Source: Candidatus Omnitrophota bacterium (lineage in GTDB: Bacteria > Omnitrophota > Gorgyraeia > Gygaellales > Profunditerraquicolaceae). From it: a stretch of 60,981 bases of DNA. The notes beneath the pieces are model-generated. The model was not told where the DNA came from, made no database searches, and saw only the letters and a list, made by a program, of their open reading frames with translations. Below are positions 7,851 through 58,363 of the stretch, piece after piece; position 1 is the first letter of the stretch, and every line of letters starts with the position of its first letter. The DNA is taken from assembly GCA_037134795.1 (NCBI GenBank), contig JBAXLM010000001.1:1-60981 (forward strand), in the 5' to 3' direction. Both the position numbers and the translations under genes were made by a program.

Positions 7851-8798
7851 GTGGTTGGCTCGTCGTATAATTTTCAGAGGATAAGAAGTTTCTTATTTTA
7901 CTCAAGCGTATTTTTATTTATTGCGGGCTTGCCTTTTATTTTATCATTCGCTTTGGGCTATAAGTTAAATCTACGTACTAAGAAATTTGTAAAAACCGGG
8001 TTAATTTATATCAAGACTCAGCCTGAAGGGGCAAAGGTTTACCTTAATAATAAAATGATTACCCAAAAAACTCCGGTGAGCATTCAGGAACTTATCCCGG
8101 GGGCTTATAAAATTACCTTAGAATTAGCTAAGCATTATCCTTGGAAGGCCGAGGTTAATGTGGAGGAGGGTAAGGTTAGCCGTGTGGATAAGGTTATTCT
8201 CTTTCCTTTAAGGCCTAATTTAGAGCAGTTAAGCCAGGAGAGATTTTCTTCTTTTCGCCTTGATGCCCAGAATGAGGCAATTTATTATCTGGATCCGGGA
8301 AATAGGGTTGTTTATAAGTCGAATCTAGATGGGAGTAATTTTAAGGATATTGCCGGCATCCCAATGAACTTCACGGATATCAAGGGTTGGGATGTTGCAG
8401 AGGATAAAACCAAATTGTTTATTTTTAACTCTCAGCAGATTATTGTAATCTTTTTTGACGCGAAAGATAACTATGAATATTCAGATTCACCTGTAATTAT
8501 TGATTATGCGCGAGAGAAAGTTTCGACAGTTTTCTGGCATTCGGATAGCTATCATCTGGTAGTGATAACTAATAAGCATGTCGCGGTAATTGAAGCTAGG
8601 GCCGCGGCAGAGCCAGTTAATCTGGTGGATTTGGAAAAAGAAAGTAAGGTATCTTTTTATGATGGAAAGCGTGACACACTTTATTTCACCCTTCCTTATA
8701 TGAGTGGCGGGGATATTGATAGTAATCTTTATAGGCTAGAGTTGGATACCGATCTTTTTATGTTGGAAGGCTTGATGCGAGGAAAGCAAAATGAATAA
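7851..8798 (+). CDS. Membrane-anchored PEGA-domain protein
   Basis: GTG start. N-terminal TM segment. PEGA-like segment IKTQPEGAKVYLNNKMITQKTPVSIQELIPGAYKITL. The C-terminal region is uncharacterised. Confidence 0.6.
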   Translation: MVGSSYNFQRIRSFLFYSSVFLFIAGLPFILSFALGYKLNLRTKKFVKTGLIYIKTQPEGAKVYLNNKMITQKTPVSIQELIPGAYKITLELAKHYPWKAEVNVEEGKVSRVDKVILFPLRPNLEQLSQERFSSFRLDAQNEAIYYLDPGNRVVYKSNLDGSNFKDIAGIPMNFTDIKGWDVAEDKTKLFIFNSQQIIVIFFDAKDNYEYSDSPVIIDYAREKVSTVFWHSDSYHLVVITNKHVAVIEARAAAEPVNLVDLEKESKVSFYDGKRDTLYFTLPYMSGGDIDSNLYRLELDTDLFMLEGLMRGKQNE

Positions 8799-10284
8799 AG
8801 CGAAAATTCTAAAGCGTGTTTTTGAGATTATACCCGGGGGGTTATCCTGGGGTATAATTATTTCGCTTATTTTGTTATCTATTGTGTATCCGATAGCAAG
8901 CGCGATTATTATCATTACTTTTGATTTTTATTGGATTATTCGCACGGTTTACTTAACCACTCTTTTGATTATGGCTCATCACAGGCTTGCTCGCCAAAAG
9001 GGTGATAATTGGCTGAATCGCTGCATGTCTTTAGGCCAAGATAAGGGTTGGCCAGATTTATATCAGTTAGTGATATTTCCGGTTTGTAATGAGGGATTGG
9101 AAGTTTTGCGCCCATCATTAGCAGCTTTAGAGGCGATACATTATCCGAAAGAAAAGATTATTGTTGTTATGTCTTTCGAAGAAAGAAATAAATTATCAAG
9201 AGGCAACGCCTTAATTTTAGAAAAAGAGTTTAGCGATAAGTTCGGAGTTTATCTATCCACTTTTCACCCTGACGCGTTGCCTGAGGAAAGCCGCACTAAA
9301 GGCGCGAATGCTACTTGGGCAGCTAAAATTGCCAGAAGTTTTATAGATACGCGTAAAATTGCTTATAAAAATGTGCTTGTTTCATGTTTTGACGCAGACA
9401 CTTGCGTTGAGATTGAGTATTTTGGCTGCCTGAGTTACCATTTCTTAACTTCTGATAAACCACATCAGGCCAGTTATCAGCCGATGCCGGTTTATAACAA
9501 TAATATCTGGCAGGCACCGTCTTTTGCCAGATTAGTTGAAATAAGCGGTTCATTTTGTCAAATGATCGAGAGTATGCGCCTTGAAAAATTTGTGACATTT
9601 TCCAGCCATAGCATGAGCTTTAGAACTTTGGTAGAAATTAATTATTGGCCGACCAATATGATTTCTGATGACTCGGTAATTTATTGGAAAGGTTTTTTGC
9701 ATTATAACGGAGAGTATCGCGTAATTCCGTTGTACATTACAGTTTCCATGGATGTGGCATACTCTAGCAATATTTGGCGCACCATGGTTATGCAGTATAA
9801 ACAGAAAAGAAGATGGGCTTGGGGCGTAGAGAATTTTCCATTTGTAGCCTGTGGATTTTTAGAGAATAAGCATATTTCGTTACTAAAAAAGTTAAGAAGG
9901 TTGTTCCATCTTTTAGAAAGCCATGTTACTTGGGCAGTTTGGGCAGTTATTTTGGTTTTAATCGGCCCTTTGCCTATTTTTTTCGGCGGGGTATTCTTTG
10001 GCCAAACAGCCATTGCTTACAACTTGCCGAAAATTACCGGTTTACTATTTAATTTTACGTTATTAACCAGCCTTACCTGGATATTTTTAAGCCGCACAAT
10101 TTTACCGCCTCGGCCTAAAGGTATTAGCTGGTTTAAAAATGTAATTTTAGTTTTAGAATGGTGTTTTGTGCCGTTTATTATATTGGTTTTGGGGTCTACT
10201 CCCGCGCTAGATGCCCAAAGCCGCCTTATGTTTGCTAAATACATGGAATTTAATCCTACATTAAAAGGGGATAAAGTGATATAA
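8791..10284 (+). CDS. Integral-membrane family-2-like glycosyltransferase
   Basis: TM helices at both ends. Central GT-A-like region (VIFPVCNEGLEVLRPSL...HYPKEKIIVV...CFDADT). Overlaps the preceding gene by 8 nt. Confidence 0.6.
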   Translation: MNKAKILKRVFEIIPGGLSWGIIISLILLSIVYPIASAIIIITFDFYWIIRTVYLTTLLIMAHHRLARQKGDNWLNRCMSLGQDKGWPDLYQLVIFPVCNEGLEVLRPSLAALEAIHYPKEKIIVVMSFEERNKLSRGNALILEKEFSDKFGVYLSTFHPDALPEESRTKGANATWAAKIARSFIDTRKIAYKNVLVSCFDADTCVEIEYFGCLSYHFLTSDKPHQASYQPMPVYNNNIWQAPSFARLVEISGSFCQMIESMRLEKFVTFSSHSMSFRTLVEINYWPTNMISDDSVIYWKGFLHYNGEYRVIPLYITVSMDVAYSSNIWRTMVMQYKQKRRWAWGVENFPFVACGFLENKHISLLKKLRRLFHLLESHVTWAVWAVILVLIGPLPIFFGGVFFGQTAIAYNLPKITGLLFNFTLLTSLTWIFLSRTILPPRPKGISWFKNVILVLEWCFVPFIILVLGSTPALDAQSRLMFAKYMEFNPTLKGDKVI

Positions 10285-21743: not shown

Positions 21744-23135
21744 ATGAAAATCCTGTTTTTCAAGTTGCTTTCTCTGTTTCTGCTTTCTCTTTGCCTGGGG
21801 ATTTGCGCTAATTCCTTTGGAATGAATGCGCATCAGGCCCTTTCCATAAGTATATTTTCTGCTTCTATTCTGGGTACGCTTTTTTTCTGGGATTTCCGCC
21901 TCAGCTTTGCTTTTATCGGCACATCCGTATTGCTAATGACTAAAACCATCGATTTAGAGCATGTTATTGAATTCTCGTCGCTTGAAGTGATCCTTTTTCT
22001 GGTGGGAATGATGGTGATTATCGGCTTACTGAAAGATTCCGGAGTTTTTGCTTGGATCGTAAGCCTGATTCTACGTATCCCCAGGTTAAGCGGTAGAAAG
22101 TTTGTGTTATTTATAGCACTGATATCTGCTTTACTTGCTTGTACCATTGATGAAGTAACTTCGATTATCTTTATGGTTGTTGCGATCATAGAGATTTGTG
22201 ATTACTTTGAGGCTAACCCGGTACCTTTTGTGATAATCTCTGTTTTGGCGACTAATATTGGCTCTGCAGCTACAGTTTTAGGCAACCCAATAGGAATACT
22301 TATTGCCTCAAAATCCGGCTTAACCTTTGAAGATTTTATTACCAAAGCCTTTCCTTTGGCTGCAGTTTGTTTATTAGTTACTATTGCCATACTTTTATTT
22401 TGGTATAAAAAATCAATTAAAGTTCTTAATGATCAGATGCAAAGATTAGGGGCTAATGAAATGTTGATTAAGCTAATCTCAGTGCCGCCGGCAAGGGATC
22501 TAAAAATAAGTTTAGGAATATTTGCAGTAATGTTAGTTTTTCTAACACTACATCATCGTATGGAAGTAGCCTGGGGGTTACCTGCTAATACTATTTTATT
22601 GGTTGTGCCACTTGTGGCCAGCGGTTTGGTAATGATCTGGAAGCACCAGAAGGCCAGGAAATATATTGAAAAAGACGTAGAATGGTGGACGCTGCTTTTC
22701 TTTTTGCTTTTATTTATTCAGGCGGGAACATTAAAATATACTGGAGTAACTGTTTTTATTGCTAAACATATGCTTGCAGCAACTGGCAATAATCTCGATC
22801 TTTTGACTTCTGCTATACTCTGGATAAGTACAATAGGATCAAGCGTATTGGATAACGTAGTTTTAGTAGCGGCTTTTATCCCCGTTGTGCAGGGATTCCA
22901 AAGTTTAAATATAAACCTGCAGCCGTTATGGTGGGCGTTGCTTTTTGGGGGGTGCTTAGGAGGCAATATTACTTTAATTGGCTCAACTGCAAATATTGTA
23001 GCAATTGGTATTGTAGAAAAAGAAAAACATATTAAAATAAGTTTTCTTAATTGGTTCTGGGTAGGTTTAACCGTGGGTTTAATTACAACAGTAATTGTAA
23101 TGGCGGCACTTTTATTTCTTCCGTTTTACAGATAA
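21744..23135 (+). CDS. ArsB/NhaD-superfamily (CitMHS-like) anion permease
   Basis: A 463-aa polytopic protein with repeated GNPIGILIA and GSTANIVA hairpin-type motifs. A paralogue lies at 33896-35164. Confidence 0.7.
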   Translation: MKILFFKLLSLFLLSLCLGICANSFGMNAHQALSISIFSASILGTLFFWDFRLSFAFIGTSVLLMTKTIDLEHVIEFSSLEVILFLVGMMVIIGLLKDSGVFAWIVSLILRIPRLSGRKFVLFIALISALLACTIDEVTSIIFMVVAIIEICDYFEANPVPFVIISVLATNIGSAATVLGNPIGILIASKSGLTFEDFITKAFPLAAVCLLVTIAILLFWYKKSIKVLNDQMQRLGANEMLIKLISVPPARDLKISLGIFAVMLVFLTLHHRMEVAWGLPANTILLVVPLVASGLVMIWKHQKARKYIEKDVEWWTLLFFLLLFIQAGTLKYTGVTVFIAKHMLAATGNNLDLLTSAILWISTIGSSVLDNVVLVAAFIPVVQGFQSLNINLQPLWWALLFGGCLGGNITLIGSTANIVAIGIVEKEKHIKISFLNWFWVGLTVGLITTVIVMAALLFLPFYR

Positions 23136-33879: not shown

Positions 33880-33895
33880 AATTTGGAGATTGAAT

Positions 33896-35164
33896 ATGGA
33901 TGCTAAGATCATAGCGTTAATAGTTTTTATTATTGCTTACACGCTCTTTGTAATTCTTCCGCAGAGGCGCACAATAATTGCTTTGGCCGGCAGCCTGTTG
34001 CTGGTTCTAACCCAGGCGATTTCTTTTAAGGATGCGTTTTTGGCGGTTAACTGGAATGTGATGGGAATTTTTGTCGGCACTTTAATCCTTGCGGATGTAT
34101 TTATGCAGAGCAGGGTTCCTGCTTATATTGCCGAAATAGTTGTGGATAAGGCTAAAAGCACAGCTTGGGCGATTTTGTTTATCTGTATTTTAAGCGGTTT
34201 TATTTCTGCATTTGTGGAGAATGTCGCCACAGTATTGATTGTGGCGCCTATTGCCCTGGCTTTAGCCAAGAAACTAAAAATTAATCCTACGAACATGATG
34301 ATTGCTATTGCTTTATCAAGCAACCTTCAGGGTACCGCTACTTTAATTGGGGATCCGCCAAGTATGCTTTTGGGAGGTTTTGCTAAAATGAACTTTGGGG
34401 ATTTCTTTTTTTATCGCGGTAAGCCCAGTATATTTTTTGCTGTAGAGCTGGGGGCATTTTTTTCTTTCTTTGTGCTTTATTTTATTTTCAGAAAGCACAA
34501 AGAGAAAACACAGCTTATTCCGGTGGAGAAGGTAAAAAGCTGGGTACCCACTATTTTATTGGTAAGTTTAATTGTTTTGTTGGCACTTTCTTCATTTTTT
34601 GATGCTAATTTCAGCTCTTTGGCCGGGCAAATTTGTATGGTTTTTGGCATTATTGCTTTGATCTGGGAAAAATTTATTAATAAATCTTCCATAAGGAGCG
34701 GCCTTAGGAAACTTGATTGGGATACGACATTCTTTCTGATGGGTATTTTTATTATTGTCGGGGGGATTTCGCTTACCGGATGGATTCAGGTTTTAGCTAA
34801 TTATCTGGCCAGCCTGGTAGGTGGCAATATATTCTTAGGCTATACCGCGATAGTATTCCTATCGGTAATCCTTTCGGCATTTATCGACAATGTTCCTTTC
34901 TTGGCAGCTATGCTTCCTGTGGCCATGATTATGGCGGATAAATTGCAGATCAATCCTTCTTTATTACTTTTTGGTTTATTGATTGGCACTAGCCTTGGCG
35001 GTAACATAACTCCTATCGGAGCTTCGGCTAATATTGTTGTCTGTGGCTTACTTAAAAAAGAAGGCTATCCGGTTAAATTCACGCATTTTATGAAAATAGG
35101 TATTCCTTTTACCATTGTCGCGGTAACTGCGGGTTATTTATTTATCTGGTTTATCTGGCGTTAG
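33896..35164 (+). CDS. ArsB/NhaD-superfamily anion permease (paralogue of 21744-23135)
   Basis: Polytopic protein with GDPPSMLLG and GASANIVV hairpin motifs. I prefer the ATG at 33896 with GGAG 7 nt upstream to the TTG at 33890. Confidence 0.7.
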   Translation: MDAKIIALIVFIIAYTLFVILPQRRTIIALAGSLLLVLTQAISFKDAFLAVNWNVMGIFVGTLILADVFMQSRVPAYIAEIVVDKAKSTAWAILFICILSGFISAFVENVATVLIVAPIALALAKKLKINPTNMMIAIALSSNLQGTATLIGDPPSMLLGGFAKMNFGDFFFYRGKPSIFFAVELGAFFSFFVLYFIFRKHKEKTQLIPVEKVKSWVPTILLVSLIVLLALSSFFDANFSSLAGQICMVFGIIALIWEKFINKSSIRSGLRKLDWDTTFFLMGIFIIVGGISLTGWIQVLANYLASLVGGNIFLGYTAIVFLSVILSAFIDNVPFLAAMLPVAMIMADKLQINPSLLLFGLLIGTSLGGNITPIGASANIVVCGLLKKEGYPVKFTHFMKIGIPFTIVAVTAGYLFIWFIWR

Positions 35165-53379: not shown

Positions 53380-53811
53380 ATGAAAAGGTTGTTAAGTTTT
53401 GCAGTAGTGGTTTTGGTGTTAGTGGCATTATCTGGTTGTGGTAAAAAGCAGGAGATGGAGGAGTTACAGCCGATTACCATGGAATCTTTAAGTACAGTTA
53501 CTGGTTCTACTGTCGCTGTTCCAGATTTTAAGGATCAAGAAATTAAAGTAACTGCTTCTGTAACTAAGGAATCGTTACCTTTACCTCCACAAGGGCCTTA
53601 TAAGCCTTCAGCTAACGAGATTCAGACAGCTTTAAAGAATGCAGGTTTTTATACTGGTAGCGTGGATGGAAAAATTGGCCCAAAGAGCAAAAAAGCAATA
53701 GAAGATTTCCAGAGTGCCAATGGTTTAAAAGTTGACGGTAAAGTGGGCACTAAGACTTGGGAAGCGATGGGCAAGTATCTAAGTGTTGCTGCTGAGCCTG
53801 TTAAAAGATAA
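53380..53811 (+). CDS. Lipoprotein with a C-terminal peptidoglycan-binding (PG_binding_1) domain
   Basis: Lipobox LSGCGK. IQTALKNAGFYTGSVDGKIGPKSKKAIEDFQSANGLKVDGKVGTKTW. Confidence 0.75.
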   Translation: MKRLLSFAVVVLVLVALSGCGKKQEMEELQPITMESLSTVTGSTVAVPDFKDQEIKVTASVTKESLPLPPQGPYKPSANEIQTALKNAGFYTGSVDGKIGPKSKKAIEDFQSANGLKVDGKVGTKTWEAMGKYLSVAAEPVKR

Positions 53812-53841: not shown

Positions 53842-53878
53842 AGAGAATCCTAACAATTATGTTGGGATTCTCTTTTTT
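53842..53878 (+). terminator. Intrinsic terminator
   Basis: AGAGAATCC (53842-50) pairs with GGATTCTCT (53865-73), followed by TTTTT. Confidence 0.7.
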
Positions 53879-53882
53879 ACAA

Positions 53883-53891
53883 TGGTATAAT
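53883..53891 (+). promoter_or_regulatory. Extended -10 promoter TGgTATAAT, ending 10 nt before the GH1 start codon
   Basis: TG at 53883-84, TATAAT at 53886-91, and the ATG at 53902. No SD. Confidence 0.5.
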
Positions 53892-55120: not shown

Positions 55121-57133
55121 ATGGACTATAAAGATAAAGAGTTTGTTATAAAAGAATTGCCATTTTTTGCTGGGGTTAGCAAAGCGCAGCTGGCAGCAAT
55201 TAATGCCAAAAGCGAGATTGTTGAATACCGTAAGGGCCAGTTGATTTATAAAGAAGGTTCTGCTCCGAGTGCTTTTTATTGCATTATCTCTGGGCGCGTG
55301 CAGATTTATATAAAAGATAACGCAGGCGAGTGTCTTGTTTTAGAGTATTTGCATCGCGGAAAATATTTTGGGATTATTTCTTTGCTTACAAGCGAGCCGC
55401 ATTCAGTTAGTAGCGAGGCGATAAATGATTGCACAATTCTAGTTATCAAGAAAGATAATTTTGATTTTCTGTTAAAGAGTATTCCTCGTCTGGCTATTGA
55501 TTTAAGCCGTACATTAAGCCGCCGTCTTAAGCGTAAAGATATACATCAGAAGAGAATATTTGAGAGTACGGTTATTTCAGTTTTTAGTTCCTATTCTCAA
55601 TCGGGTAAGACTACCTATGCCTTAAATCTTGCGCTTAGCCTTAATCGCGAGACACATAAATCAGTGATCATACTGGATATCTTGCCTCAAGATAAGACGC
55701 ACACATTACCGCATAAGTTAGCGCTGGATGTGCCGGCTGCGCTGAATCTATCTTCTCAAGCTGAGATTCGTACTTTACCACAGGATTTTATTTCTAAAAG
55801 TAAATTTGGCGTTGATCTTTTTTGTTTTTATTATTCCGAAGATGATTCTGCTTGTTTGAAGAGGTTAATTGAAATAATCAGTTTTTTAGTCAATGATTAT
55901 CATTATATTATTTTAGATTTGCCCGCGGCTATGGATCGGGCGATTATCAGCATGCTTAATCAGTCTGATTTGATCCATATATTAAGTAGCCCAGAGGCTG
56001 TGGATTTAAAGCGTACCAATAATCTGATTAGCCGGCTTAAGAGGGATTTTAATTTTGATGCCCAAAAGATAAAAACAATTATAAATGAATATAAGTTAGC
56101 CAGGATTAATTATAGCGATCAGTTAGACATTTTAGGGCAGGAAATTTTTGCTACCATTCCGAGAATAGGCTTTAATGCAGCAGAGCGTTTAATTATTGAT
56201 CAGCCGGATTGTGAATATTCTAAGGCTGTCAGAAGGATCGCCCGGCAACTTGGCGATTGTTTGGTGGGCTTGGTTCTGGGTGTAGGCGTGGGGTATGGAT
56301 TTTGTCATGTAGGCGTATTAAAAGTTATCGAAGAAGAAAATATTCCCATTGATATTATTGCGGGTTCAAGTATTGGTGCGCTTATTGCCAGTCTTTGGGC
56401 TATAGGTAAAAGTAGTAAAGAGATTTTAGAGATTACCCGGGAATTTAAAGAGCCTAAACATATTTGGGGGCTGATTGATATGACTTTTCCCCGGCTGGGT
56501 TTTATTAAGGGCAATAAGTTTTATCGTTTCTTAAGAAAGCATTTAGGTAGTAAAACATTTTATGATGTAAAATTGCCTTTAAAGATAATTGCCAGTGATG
56601 TGCGCAAAAAAGAGCCGAGAATTTTAGACAAAGGCCTCTTAGTTGATGCTATAATGGCTAGTTGTTCAATGCCAGGTATATTTGCTCCCTTTAAATTCAA
56701 AGGAGAGATGCTTCTTGATGGCGGGGTGACTTATCCGTTGCCAACTGAGCCGTTATTAAAGATGGGAGTGAGGAAAATTATTGCTGTAAATGTAACTCCT
56801 TCGCGGGAAGATATCTTGAACCAAGTGCAAAGGTTAAAAAATAACCTTTCTTCTGAAACGAAAGAAAGTGTCCCGAAAAATAAACCGTTTGATTTATTAG
56901 GCCGTTTAAAAAGTATTTTTAACTTAAACATAGTGGATATTATTTTTAGTAGTGTTGAGGTGTTGCAATCTGAAGTAGCTAGGCGTGAGGGTGAGCTAGC
57001 GGATATTGTATTACATCCGGATACTTCTGGTTTATTTTGGTTGGAATTGCATAAGGCTGATGAGTTTGCTCGCAGGGGTGAGGTTGAGGCGCGTAAAAAC
57101 TTAGATAAAATTTGGCAATTGATTAATGAATAG
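55121..57133 (+). CDS. Three-domain protein: cyclic-nucleotide-binding domain, MinD/ParA-like domain with degenerate P-loop, and patatin-like phospholipase
   Basis: Residues 10-130 are Crp/cNMP-like (FFAGV...GKYFGIISLL). Residues 150-375 are MinD-like (VISVFSSYSQSGKTT, YIILDLP). Residues 385-560 are patatin (GVGVGYG, G-S-S417-I-G, D533-G-G). Confidence 0.8.
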   Translation: MDYKDKEFVIKELPFFAGVSKAQLAAINAKSEIVEYRKGQLIYKEGSAPSAFYCIISGRVQIYIKDNAGECLVLEYLHRGKYFGIISLLTSEPHSVSSEAINDCTILVIKKDNFDFLLKSIPRLAIDLSRTLSRRLKRKDIHQKRIFESTVISVFSSYSQSGKTTYALNLALSLNRETHKSVIILDILPQDKTHTLPHKLALDVPAALNLSSQAEIRTLPQDFISKSKFGVDLFCFYYSEDDSACLKRLIEIISFLVNDYHYIILDLPAAMDRAIISMLNQSDLIHILSSPEAVDLKRTNNLISRLKRDFNFDAQKIKTIINEYKLARINYSDQLDILGQEIFATIPRIGFNAAERLIIDQPDCEYSKAVRRIARQLGDCLVGLVLGVGVGYGFCHVGVLKVIEEENIPIDIIAGSSIGALIASLWAIGKSSKEILEITREFKEPKHIWGLIDMTFPRLGFIKGNKFYRFLRKHLGSKTFYDVKLPLKIIASDVRKKEPRILDKGLLVDAIMASCSMPGIFAPFKFKGEMLLDGGVTYPLPTEPLLKMGVRKIIAVNVTPSREDILNQVQRLKNNLSSETKESVPKNKPFDLLGRLKSIFNLNIVDIIFSSVEVLQSEVARREGELADIVLHPDTSGLFWLELHKADEFARRGEVEARKNLDKIWQLINE

Positions 57134-57146
57134 GCGAGGAGGGATA

Positions 57147-57629
57147 ATGAAAAGAAGTATGTGTTTTGTTCTAACTACTACCTGCTGTCTGCTAGCTACT
57201 GTTTTTTTCGGGTGTGCGGCAGTTAAAGAAATGGGCAAGGGTTTTGTCGGGGTATCAACTGAGGTTTTAGAATCTAAACGTAAAGATTCCCTGAAGAAGT
57301 CTTTTGCTTTAGACTATAATAATTGCTATAAAGAGGTAAAAGAGTTGTTAAAAGGAAAAGAAATACAAGCAGGGAATGGAATACAAGCAGAGAATGAGCC
57401 TTATATCTATGCAGAGGACCTTAACAAAAAGATGATTGCGCTCTATCTTTCACAGATAGATACAGCGCCGGTAGGGATATTTTTTACTGAGGAAGCAAAA
57501 AATAAAACTTTAATTGAGGTATCCAGTCCGAGCAGCTATGCTAAGGAGCTTATTGCTAAGAAGATCTTTGCCGGAATTGATGTATTAATTAATCCAAAGA
57601 TTAAGGAGAATAAAATTAATGTTAAATAA
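57147..57629 (+). CDS. Lipoprotein of unknown function
   Basis: SD GGAGGG before the ATG at 57147. Lipobox FFGCAA. Contains an 18-nt tandem duplication (57363-57398). Confidence 0.5.
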   Translation: MKRSMCFVLTTTCCLLATVFFGCAAVKEMGKGFVGVSTEVLESKRKDSLKKSFALDYNNCYKEVKELLKGKEIQAGNGIQAENEPYIYAEDLNKKMIALYLSQIDTAPVGIFFTEEAKNKTLIEVSSPSSYAKELIAKKIFAGIDVLINPKIKENKINVK

Positions 57630-57927
57630 AAAACCGGCGATTAATGATTTAATTAAAGAGTGCCATCGTATTGCCAAAAGCAAAGGTTGGTGGATAGATG
57701 AGCGTAATGACGGAGAATTGATAGCGCTTATGCATTCAGAGTTATCTGAGGCCTTAGAGGCAATGCGCAATCACAGGGATAAGGGCGAGCTAGCTGAGGA
57801 GCTAGCTGATTGTTGTATCCGCATATTTGATTATTGCGGCTCTCGTAAAATTGATCTGGAAAAGGCGCTATTAAAAAAAATAGAATATAATAAGACGCGG
57901 CCATACCGTCACGGAAAGAAGTTCTAA
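57619..57927 (+). CDS. MazG-like nucleoside triphosphate pyrophosphohydrolase (small all-alpha NTP-PPase)
   Basis: 102 aa. Metal-binding pattern HSELSEALEA ... AEELADCCIR (E..E ... E..D). Overlaps the upstream gene by 11 nt. Confidence 0.7.
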   Translation: MLNKKPAINDLIKECHRIAKSKGWWIDERNDGELIALMHSELSEALEAMRNHRDKGELAEELADCCIRIFDYCGSRKIDLEKALLKKIEYNKTRPYRHGKKF

Positions 57928-58253: not shown

Positions 58254-58325
58254 GCCGAGGTAGCTCAGTGGTAGAGCGCGGCCCTGAAAAGGCCGGCGTG
58301 GGAAGTTCGATTCTTCTCCTCGGCA
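58254..58325 (+). tRNA. tRNA-Phe (anticodon GAA), CCA not encoded
   Basis: Manual cloverleaf: acceptor GCCGAGG/CCTCGGC, D arm GCTC-AGTGGTA-GAGC, anticodon arm CGGCC-CTGAAAA-GGCCG, T arm GGAAG-TTCGATT-CTTCT, discriminator A. Confidence 0.93.
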
Positions 58326-58333
58326 TTTTATAA

Positions 58334-58363
58334 AAAGAGGGGGTTTTATAACCCCTCTTTTTT
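58334..58363 (+). terminator. Intrinsic terminator after tRNA-Phe
   Basis: AAAGAGGGG (58334-42) pairs with CCCCTCTTT (58352-60), followed by TTT. Confidence 0.75.

Follow-up and report, generated by a model that had tools for sequence, protein, structure and literature searches.

Patatin-type lipases are controlled by protein co-activators, cyclic oligonucleotides and ubiquitin, among others. In the eukaryotic neuropathy target esterase (NTE) proteins (PNPLA6, PNPLA7 and Swiss-cheese), a cyclic-nucleotide-binding (CNB) region lies upstream of a patatin (lyso)phospholipase domain, and the dependence of these enzymes on cyclic nucleoside monophosphates (cNMPs) is debated. The TadZ/CpaE proteins join a sensor-like domain to an atypical MinD-like domain that is used for dimerization and localization and not for turnover (PMC13170226). 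Here we analyzed a gene in which a sensor of the CNB type, a MinD/ParA-fold domain and a patatin lipase follow one another in a single complete open reading frame (ORF). The gene lies within a 60,981-nt stretch of DNA ("the window"; contig JBAXLM010000001.1 of assembly GCA_037134795.1) from a Candidatus Omnitrophota bacterium. The Omnitrophota are a large, almost uncultured phylum, and our literature search found no report of a patatin wired through a MinD/ParA-fold domain.

Domain architecture of the protein

A first-pass annotation of the window, made from the letters alone, had assigned a Crp-type cNMP-binding barrel to residues ~10–130, a MinD/ParA layout to ~150–375 and a patatin domain to ~385–560 of the protein, and all three assignments were borne out. 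Every Pfam match scored above its gathering cut-off: cNMP_binding at residues 34–119 (E = 6.6e-20, 71.3 bits against 27.5), AAA_31 at 150–307 (E = 1.4e-6, 28.8 bits against 27), CbiA at 152–348 (E = 5.7e-6, 26.7 bits against 25.4) and Patatin at 384–545 (E = 2.4e-30, 106.6 bits against 27.7). The AlphaFold2 model, for which a 56-sequence alignment was the input, was confident for the 670-residue protein (pLDDT 84, pTM 0.82), with low-confidence segments confined to residues 140–144, 455–458 and 583–602. When parts of the model were compared with known structures by Foldseek, the N-terminal part matched the CNB domains of CRP, PKA and PKG, the middle part matched 3ea0 (E = 1.4e-11, TM-score 0.77 over 241 columns) and the patatin part matched PlpD (TM-score 0.83). 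Neither a signal peptide nor a transmembrane segment was predicted anywhere in the 670 residues. The architecture of sensor, MinD/ParA fold and patatin is thus confirmed by the sequence matches and by the predicted structure.

The motifs were likewise located where the annotation had placed them, namely VISVFSSYSQSGKTT at residues 151–165, YIILDLP at 262–268, GVGVGYG at 387–393, Ser417 and Asp533. Three points had been overlooked: the phosphate-binding cassette (PBC) of the sensor is non-canonical, Tyr392 stands within the glycine-rich patatin motif, and the catalytic module is of the RssA type and includes residues 561–670.

The middle domain keeps a MinD/ParA-class fold with an altered nucleotide site

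The similarity to P-loop NTPases, on which the earlier assignment of the middle region turned, was evident in Pfam and in both sequence and profile matches to the PDB. Residues 148–379 alone matched the sequences of 3ea0 (E = 3.2e-6), Aquifex MinD (E = 2.5e-5) and Soj (E = 3.8e-5). A profile built from the middle domains of 13 diverse members found 3ea0 at E = 2.7e-22, spanning positions 11–233 of 242, followed by ParA (8e-14), Soj (8e-13) and MinD (1e-11), and 11 of the 13 members matched AAA_31 individually. By sequence and by predicted structure, the middle domain is a genuine MinD/ParA-class P-loop fold.

To read the key residues across the family, 452 full-length members were aligned to one profile hidden Markov model (HMM) and divided into four groups: a close clade of 121 proteins, 105 representatives at 50% identity, a wider Omnitrophota clade of 109 and 117 proteins from Desulfobacterales. 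In the alignment to MinD, the SYSQSGKT of the window protein lies opposite GKGGVGKT. As the annotation had noticed, the KGG signature is replaced; the signature Lys and both Gly have become Y-S-Q with GKT retained, and Lys163, Thr164 and the Walker B Asp266 are all present. In switch I, D186-I-L188 is aligned opposite the D-x-D of MinD, and the equivalent of the catalytic Asp40 of MinD (Asp44 of Soj) is Leu188, a residue found in 114 of the 121 close-clade proteins. No C-terminal amphipathic membrane-targeting helix of the MinD type was seen, as the middle domain passes directly into the patatin domain at residue 382. The nearest solved relative, 3ea0, itself reads KGGDGGS and is without the Walker A Lys. 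Work on MinD and Soj has established that the sandwich dimer cannot form when the second Gly of KGG is replaced by a bulky residue. Judged from these residues, the MinD-type sandwich dimer held by the signature lysine cannot form in the close clade, whose members might possibly still bind a nucleotide without it. The loss of the signature Lys and of both KGG glycines, the presence of Leu188 and the lack of a membrane-targeting helix together argue against a sandwich-dimer ATP cycle of the MinD type.

Across the family the nucleotide site is more variable still. The canonical deviant Walker A motif, KGGxGK[ST], occurred in none of the 452 members; the loop typical of the family, [KR]GxG[KR][ST], has one residue fewer and was unrecognizable in 66 of the 105 representatives. 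The Walker A Lys (Lys163) was found in every close-clade protein (121/121), in 32/105 representatives and in 8/109 of the wider Omnitrophota, where Arg takes its place in 82/109, and in none of the 117 Desulfobacterales proteins. Asp266 was more widely retained (121/121, 53/105 and 107/109 in the close clade, the representatives and the wider Omnitrophota) and is Ser or Asn in Desulfobacterales. In the close clade, the loop FSSY[SA][QR][AS]GKT is invariant, as are G162-K163-T164, Asp186, Asp266 and Asn322 (121/121). The middle region of the Desulfobacterales proteins is homologous to that of Omnitrophota (E = 7e-23 against the Omnitrophota middle-domain HMM, over its full length), and no recognizable P-loop was found in it (SATDPDLGLSHF); the fold therefore seems to have been retained there without a nucleotide site. 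The assignment of the MinD fold to this region rests on the HMM match. A model of the Desulfobacter homologue (pLDDT 74) had the same predicted beta/alpha order, and its best 50 Foldseek matches were all PlpD or CNB domains. The family thus appears as one orthologous series in which the MinD-fold domain grades from the GKT site of the close clade through Arg-substituted loops to the P-loop-less Desulfobacterales proteins. Because the Walker A Lys is not conserved, the P-loop is absent in Desulfobacterales and no member has KGGxGK[ST], ATP hydrolysis cannot be the conserved role of the family, and the pattern of substitutions argues for a conserved role that is structural rather than ATP-driven.

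This pattern bears on the proposal, made in the first-pass annotation, that the MinD-like module could provide nucleotide-dependent dimerization or membrane targeting. Family-wide, the proposal is weakened by the variable Walker A Lys, the absent KGG, Leu188 and the missing amphipathic helix, and what stands of it is the possibility of nucleotide binding in the close clade. In its strongest form, the close-clade domain would be a working nucleotide switch, with ATP-dependent dimerization or binding to a membrane or a partner gating the lipase and with the CNB ligand and ATP/ADP as the two inputs. The invariant site residues in all 121 close-clade proteins are in its favor, and so is the conservation of the middle domain, which equals that of the sensor (76% and 74% identity to the query in the close clade). 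TadZ, moreover, binds ATP for dimerization despite its deviant Walker A motif (PMC13170226). However, the Y-S-Q replacement of the signature Lys and both glycines, Leu188 at the position of MinD Asp40 and the absence of the helix all speak against such a switch. As the P-loop of most orthologues carries Arg, is degenerate or is missing, any such switch is not the mechanism that the family conserves. We consider a working nucleotide switch unlikely, although it survives better than the other alternatives weighed below.

The sensor pocket and the linker

The PBC of the sensor, FGIISLLTSEPHS, carries Ile85 and His94 where the aligned CNB domain of a Toxoplasma protein has the conserved Glu and Arg, and presumably, in a second alignment, where E. 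coli CRP has Glu72 and Arg82. In the canonical cassette, the Glu holds the ribose 2'-OH and the Arg holds the cyclic phosphate. His94 was found in 121/121 close-clade and 109/109 wider Omnitrophota proteins; the Desulfobacterales cassette is canonical, with Glu in 116/117 and Arg in 117/117. Because the Omnitrophota pocket is without the Arg and Glu that hold cAMP or cGMP, a canonical 3',5'-cNMP is probably not its ligand, or is bound there in another manner. Other CNB domains are known that are without the Arg and have different ligands, for example those of the "cAMP-independent" trypanosome PKA regulatory subunits, which bind nucleosides. Trypanosome PKA regulatory subunits were among the Foldseek matches of the Desulfobacter homologue model.

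Between the sensor and the middle domain, the linker at residues 122–149 was the most conserved segment in the close clade, with a mean identity of 93% as compared with 87% for the patatin core. In the model it forms a helix at 122–140, followed by the low-confidence residues 140–144. We presume that this C-helix and basic linker relay the signal. The conservation of the linker and of the middle region (93% and 76% in the close clade) indicates that both are under purifying selection and are not decaying.

The catalytic module is an RssA-like patatin

The patatin part also matched PlpD by sequence (E = 2.2e-22), and both elements of the catalytic dyad are in place, the nucleophile in a GxSxG context (G-S-S417-I-G) and the Asp in a DG[GA] context (D533-G-G). 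Ser417 and Asp533, together with Gly389, were invariant in all four groups (452/452). In the glycine-rich motif G-V-G-V-G-Y-G, Tyr392 stands at the usual Arg position with Gly389 and Gly393 retained, and the basic residue of the G-G-x-[RK]-G oxyanion motif of patatins is consequently absent from the protein. The same position is Leu, Met or Phe in the wider Omnitrophota and Arg in Desulfobacterales. The neutral-lipid patatins of the ATGL group are likewise without the Arg of this motif; by analogy, its absence hints at a substrate other than a phospholipid. We also asked whether loss of the PBC Arg and loss of the patatin Arg go together. The raw counts suggested so (300 versus 121) but reflect clade structure, and among the 50%-identity representatives the association disappeared (Fisher p = 0.49).

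The NCBIfam model of RssA (NF007623) aligned over residues 382–669 with 113.2 bits against an equivalog cut-off of 272; on this sequence comparison, the C-terminal module is RssA-like and is not an RssA orthologue. Because the RssA model spans 382–669, the C-terminal 110 residues are part of the RssA-type module. Within them, the loop at 583–602, of low confidence in the model, is variable.

Family size and distribution

The annotation had called the architecture unusual. It is undescribed in the literature that we found, but it is common, being shared over its whole length by more than 1,000 clusters, nearly all of them from Omnitrophota. Each cluster search scored 8000 candidates, which makes the cluster counts lower bounds: a word-indexed search gave at least 1162 clusters at 90% identity with E ≤ 1e-5, and a second search gave at least 1298. 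The best 120 clusters of the word-indexed search were 611–726 residues long (nearly all 662–686), at least 66% identical and, where named, from Candidatus Omnitrophota. When 1.84 billion representatives at 50% identity were searched exhaustively with phmmer, 1456 matched at E ≤ 1e-30; about 106 of the best 150 were 600–760 residues long, and most of these aligned without a break over residues ~5–668 at 26–66% identity. A profile search from 32 distant members again returned almost exclusively Omnitrophota proteins, many of which carry a precomputed AAA_31, CbiA or ParA match in the middle of the protein. Among the species-representative genomes of GTDB, full-length matches were found in 30-odd Omnitrophota assemblies, one in each; a few of the matched assemblies are labeled Planctomycetales or Verrucomicrobiia. 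Full-length relatives at 24–25% identity were also present in two Desulfobacteraceae genomes, and a search seeded with one of them revealed a sister family of ~650 residues across Desulfobacterales, including the cultured Desulfobacter curvatus and D. latus.

The database labels of the family cover only its two outer domains. Our literature search found no description of a patatin–MinD/ParA fusion or of Omnitrophota patatins; Rv2565 was mentioned in a review table only, as an uncharacterized entry. The architecture is common and old, yet undescribed, and the family is a phylum-wide, single-copy core gene of Omnitrophota.

Some variants depart from this distribution or from the full domain order. 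Four Omnitrophota loci (L037, L038, L040 and L041) encode a CNB-less form of ~500 residues with the MinD-like and patatin domains, whose input may be supplied in trans. A hybrid histidine kinase (HAMP-HisKA-HATPase-REC) lies directly downstream of the CNB-less gene in three of them (L038, 6561–7700; L040, 3363–4508; L041, 7484–8632). Two members, P0365 and P0336, are labeled Thermoproteota archaeon and Candidatus Eisenbacteria, and are 40–44% identical to the lead query of the profile search, P0123; these labels are probably binning or taxonomy errors and not real transfers. Forms of ~540 residues from Chloroflexota (L047, L048, L054 and L078) are not claimed here to share the middle domain, the similarity of their short middle region to the MinD-like HMM being not significant. 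Three of them (L047, 4347–5966; L048, 6001–7638; L078, 6001–7623) have a canonical PBC, a GGARG patatin motif and a middle region of ~130 residues, and the beta-alpha-beta pattern of the Chloroflexota middle region is reminiscent of a reduced Rossmann-like core.

Linkage to beta-oxidation genes in distant loci

We divided the Omnitrophota loci into relatives at ≥55% identity (L001–L014) and 27 more distant loci (L015–L041). Beta-oxidation genes stood beside the three-domain gene in 16 of the 27 distant loci, and in 14 of those 16 they directly adjoined it on the same strand at a distance of 0–53 bp. With X for the three-domain gene, four arrangements were seen: VLCAD-like acyl-CoA dehydrogenase–X, X–thiolase–FadB, X–FadB and FadB–X. 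This recurrent linkage in varied arrangements is the best functional clue that we have, and it is consistent with a lipase whose fatty-acid products are oxidized.

In one Desulfobacterales locus (L084, 4250–6713), a FeeM/Acetyltransf_5 gene (N-acyl amino acid synthase-like) and a FAD_binding_4 gene lie ahead of the sister-family gene, in what is another lipid-related neighborhood.

Genomic context in the window

The features of the gene and its surroundings are collected in Table 1. The local synteny is retained in all relatives at ≥55% identity, and the adjacency of the glycoside hydrolase family 1 (GH1) gene, seen in L001–L014, recurs in L033 at 33% identity. The promoter-like site upstream of GH1 is a possible operon start, and the tRNA-Phe gene with the hairpin behind it marks the end of the gene block. 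The window as a whole reads as an ordinary chromosome, with ComEC, MurJ, UvrC, SecA, Lnt and transporters, and no paralogue of the three-domain protein was found within its 60,981 nt.

The small MazG-like ORF downstream is 77–88% identical in L001–L009, above the conservation of the three-domain protein itself, and is absent in L010–L014. Since the protein with which it would be co-transcribed has two pockets of a nucleotide type, the pairing may not be accidental. Elsewhere in the window, a 497-residue ORF at 8791–10284 had no Pfam match at E ≤ 1e-5, and two paralogous transporters of the CitMHS family (citrate/arsenite-type) lie at 21744–23135 and 33890–35164, less than 12 kb apart.

Table 1 Features of the three-domain gene and its neighborhood (window coordinates)
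Feature	Position	Strand	Evidence or remark
Lipoprotein with peptidoglycan-binding domain, upstream, conserved neighbor	53380..53811	+	lipobox LSGC
Best promoter-like site, just upstream of GH1	53862..53891	+	consensus match only
GH1 glycoside hydrolase, ends 1 nt before the start codon	53902..55119	+	Pfam Glyco_hydro_1, E 2.4e-83
Complete ORF, sensor + MinD/ParA-fold + patatin lipase	55121..57133	+	670 aa
CNB-type beta-barrel (residues 10–121)	55148..55483	+	Pfam cNMP_binding, E 6.6e-20; CRP/PKA/PKG matches
Non-canonical PBC FGIISLLTSEPHSVS (residues 83–97; I85, H94)	55367..55411	+	alignments
C-helix and basic linker LSRTLSRRLKRKDIHQKRIFES (residues 122–149)	55484..55567	+	conservation; AlphaFold model
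MinD/ParA-class P-loop fold (residues 150–378)	55568..56254	+	Pfam AAA_31/CbiA; 3ea0 profile match; Foldseek
Atypical Walker A, FSSYSQSGKTT (residues 155–165)	55583..55615	+	motif reading, alignments
Walker B-like strand, YIILDLP (residues 262–268; D266)	55904..55924	+	motif reading, family alignment
Patatin catalytic domain (residues 382–560)	56264..56800	+	Pfam Patatin; PlpD by sequence and Foldseek
Ser417 nucleophile codon, G-S-S-I-G	56369..56371	+	Ser 452/452
Catalytic Asp533 codon, D-G-G	56717..56719	+	Asp 452/452
C-terminal helical extension (residues 561–670) of the RssA-type module	56801..57130	+	NCBIfam RssA alignment
DUF3568-like lipoprotein, overlaps the lipase stop codon by 8 nt, conserved downstream neighbor	57126..57629	+	
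Small MazG-like nucleotide pyrophosphohydrolase (102 aa), overlaps the DUF3568-like ORF by 11 nt	57619..57927	+	Pfam MazG, E 1.1e-4, 22.8 bits vs 22
tRNA-Phe (GAA)	58254-58325		followed by bidirectional terminator-like hairpin, 58339-58356

Discussion

From what is described above on the domains, the state of their motifs, the distribution of the family and the linkage of its genes, we infer ligand gating, a scaffold role and a substrate class as follows. The protein would be a cytoplasmic, ligand-gated lipid acyl-hydrolase in which a MinD-fold relay or scaffold couples the sensor to the release of fatty acids. The CNB-type barrel would sense a small molecule, which in Omnitrophota is probably something other than canonical cAMP or cGMP, and the signal would run through the conserved C-helix and basic linker into the MinD/ParA-fold domain. 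That domain would act mainly as a structural relay or dimerization scaffold and not as an ATP-hydrolyzing switch, and in the close clade GKT, Asp186, Asp266 and Asn322 may still bind a nucleotide. The RssA-type patatin, with its intact Ser417–Asp533 dyad, would be the catalytic output under the control of the MinD-fold domain, and its physiological role could be to free fatty acids from lipids for catabolism or to turn over membrane lipids. Taken as a whole, and resting as it does on sequence comparison and a predicted structure, we give this reading about an even chance of being right.

Several observations weigh against the ligand-gated scaffold reading. The close clade keeps every nucleotide-contacting residue invariant except the KGG signature, and these residues agree equally well with a scaffold and with a functional nucleotide site. 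Binding of a phosphate by His94 could still be conceived, and Tyr392 in place of the Arg leaves the substrate class of the lipase uncertain. In addition, the linkage to beta-oxidation genes was seen in other subclades, and the partners in the close clade are GH1 and two lipoproteins. A more specific version for the close clade is a two-input allosteric lipase, in which a non-cNMP ligand at the His pocket and the adenylate state at the P-loop would together gate an acyl-hydrolase of neutral lipids or glycolipids that feeds beta-oxidation; this version we regard as speculative and rather improbable. If it is true, such a two-input lipase would be a form of patatin regulation not previously described.

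We also considered a role in abortive infection or phage defense, with the protein as an effector like CapV/CapE of CBASS or those of Pycsar, that is, a phospholipase that is activated by a cyclic nucleotide and destroys the membrane upon infection. The combination of CNB and patatin domains fits this logic, Foldseek found CapE and CapV at E of about 1e-12, and PADLOC gave weak matches, at E = 3.4e-10 with phospholipase effectors and at E = 1.8e-9 with the CNB part of Pycsar TIR effectors. However, these PADLOC matches are at the level of single domains, none of the neighboring genes matched PADLOC, and no cyclase or defense gene was found nearby. The score against the NCBIfam model CBASS_lipase (NF041079) was 18.5 bits with a cut-off of 200. 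The gene is single-copy in a housekeeping window, its synteny is kept at ≥55% identity, distant members stand in other non-defense settings including the beta-oxidation linkage of other clades, and the PBC is without the cNMP-binding Arg and Glu. We therefore rejected this explanation as the principal one and hold it to be very improbable. Least probable of all is a lipase that predatory or parasitic Omnitrophota would secrete or inject to attack the membranes of a host. In its favor, Omnitrophota include host-dependent nanobacteria (mentioned in PMC12419801), the patatins ExoU and PlpD are virulence lipases, and lipoproteins are encoded on both sides of the gene. Against it, neither a signal peptide nor a transmembrane segment is present, the protein carries two regulatory domains of a cytoplasmic type, and the family has homologues in free-living Desulfobacter and linkage to cytoplasmic beta-oxidation enzymes.

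The family is useful in several ways. It is an undescribed variant among bacterial CNB-patatin lipases, with an unannotated middle domain, and it offers a natural series for the passage from a ParA-type switch to a pseudo-enzyme scaffold. The CNB pocket with its fixed Arg-to-His change is a system for the study of ligands, regulated lipid mobilization becomes a concrete, testable hypothesis through the linkage to the genes of acyl-CoA dehydrogenase, FadB and thiolase, and the sister family in cultured Desulfobacter makes experiments feasible.

Comparison with known systems

Among proteins of the MinD/ParA/Soj class, the nearest to the middle domain is 3ea0, a ParA-family ATPase from Chlorobium tepidum. 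The two have in common the fold, the strand order and a length of ~230 residues, as well as helix alpha-1 (NLAxxL) and the Walker B Asp, whereas the middle domain of the window protein has no KGG, a shorter loop and no equivalent of the catalytic Asp or of the membrane-targeting helix, and is embedded in a larger chain. TadZ/CpaE of Tad pili resembles the family in having a pseudo-receiver, sensor-like domain and a MinD-like domain with a deviating Walker A, but its N-terminal domain is of another type and it has no enzymatic effector domain. Specific membership in TadZ/CpaE was rejected, as TadZ (3fkq) was not among the PDB matches of the profile at E ≤ 0.001, and we use the comparison as an analogy only.

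On the catalytic side, CapV/CapE and E. coli RssA/PlpD share the patatin fold and the dyad, and CapV/CapE are activated by nucleotides. In CapV/CapE, the cyclic (oligo)nucleotide is bound on the lipase chain itself, as judged from the titles of the PDB entries. CapV/CapE are not known to have a CNB domain. The window protein lies far below the equivalog cut-offs of both RssA (113 versus 272) and CapV (18.5 versus 200). NTE differs in having an N-terminal transmembrane segment and three CNB domains, in being anchored to the endoplasmic reticulum and in lacking a P-loop-fold domain between the sensor and the catalytic domain; the window protein has one CNB domain and no transmembrane segment. 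The likeness to NTE implies no orthology, and "NTE family protein", as used by JGI, is the generic title of an orthology group.

The CNB-patatin proteins of Desulfobacterales have the same order of a CNB domain, a homologous middle region of ~230 residues and an RssA-type patatin with the Ser–Asp dyad. These proteins differ in having a canonical PBC with Glu and Arg, a GGARG patatin motif and no P-loop, whereas in the window protein the PBC contains Ile and His, the patatin motif contains Tyr and GKT is retained.

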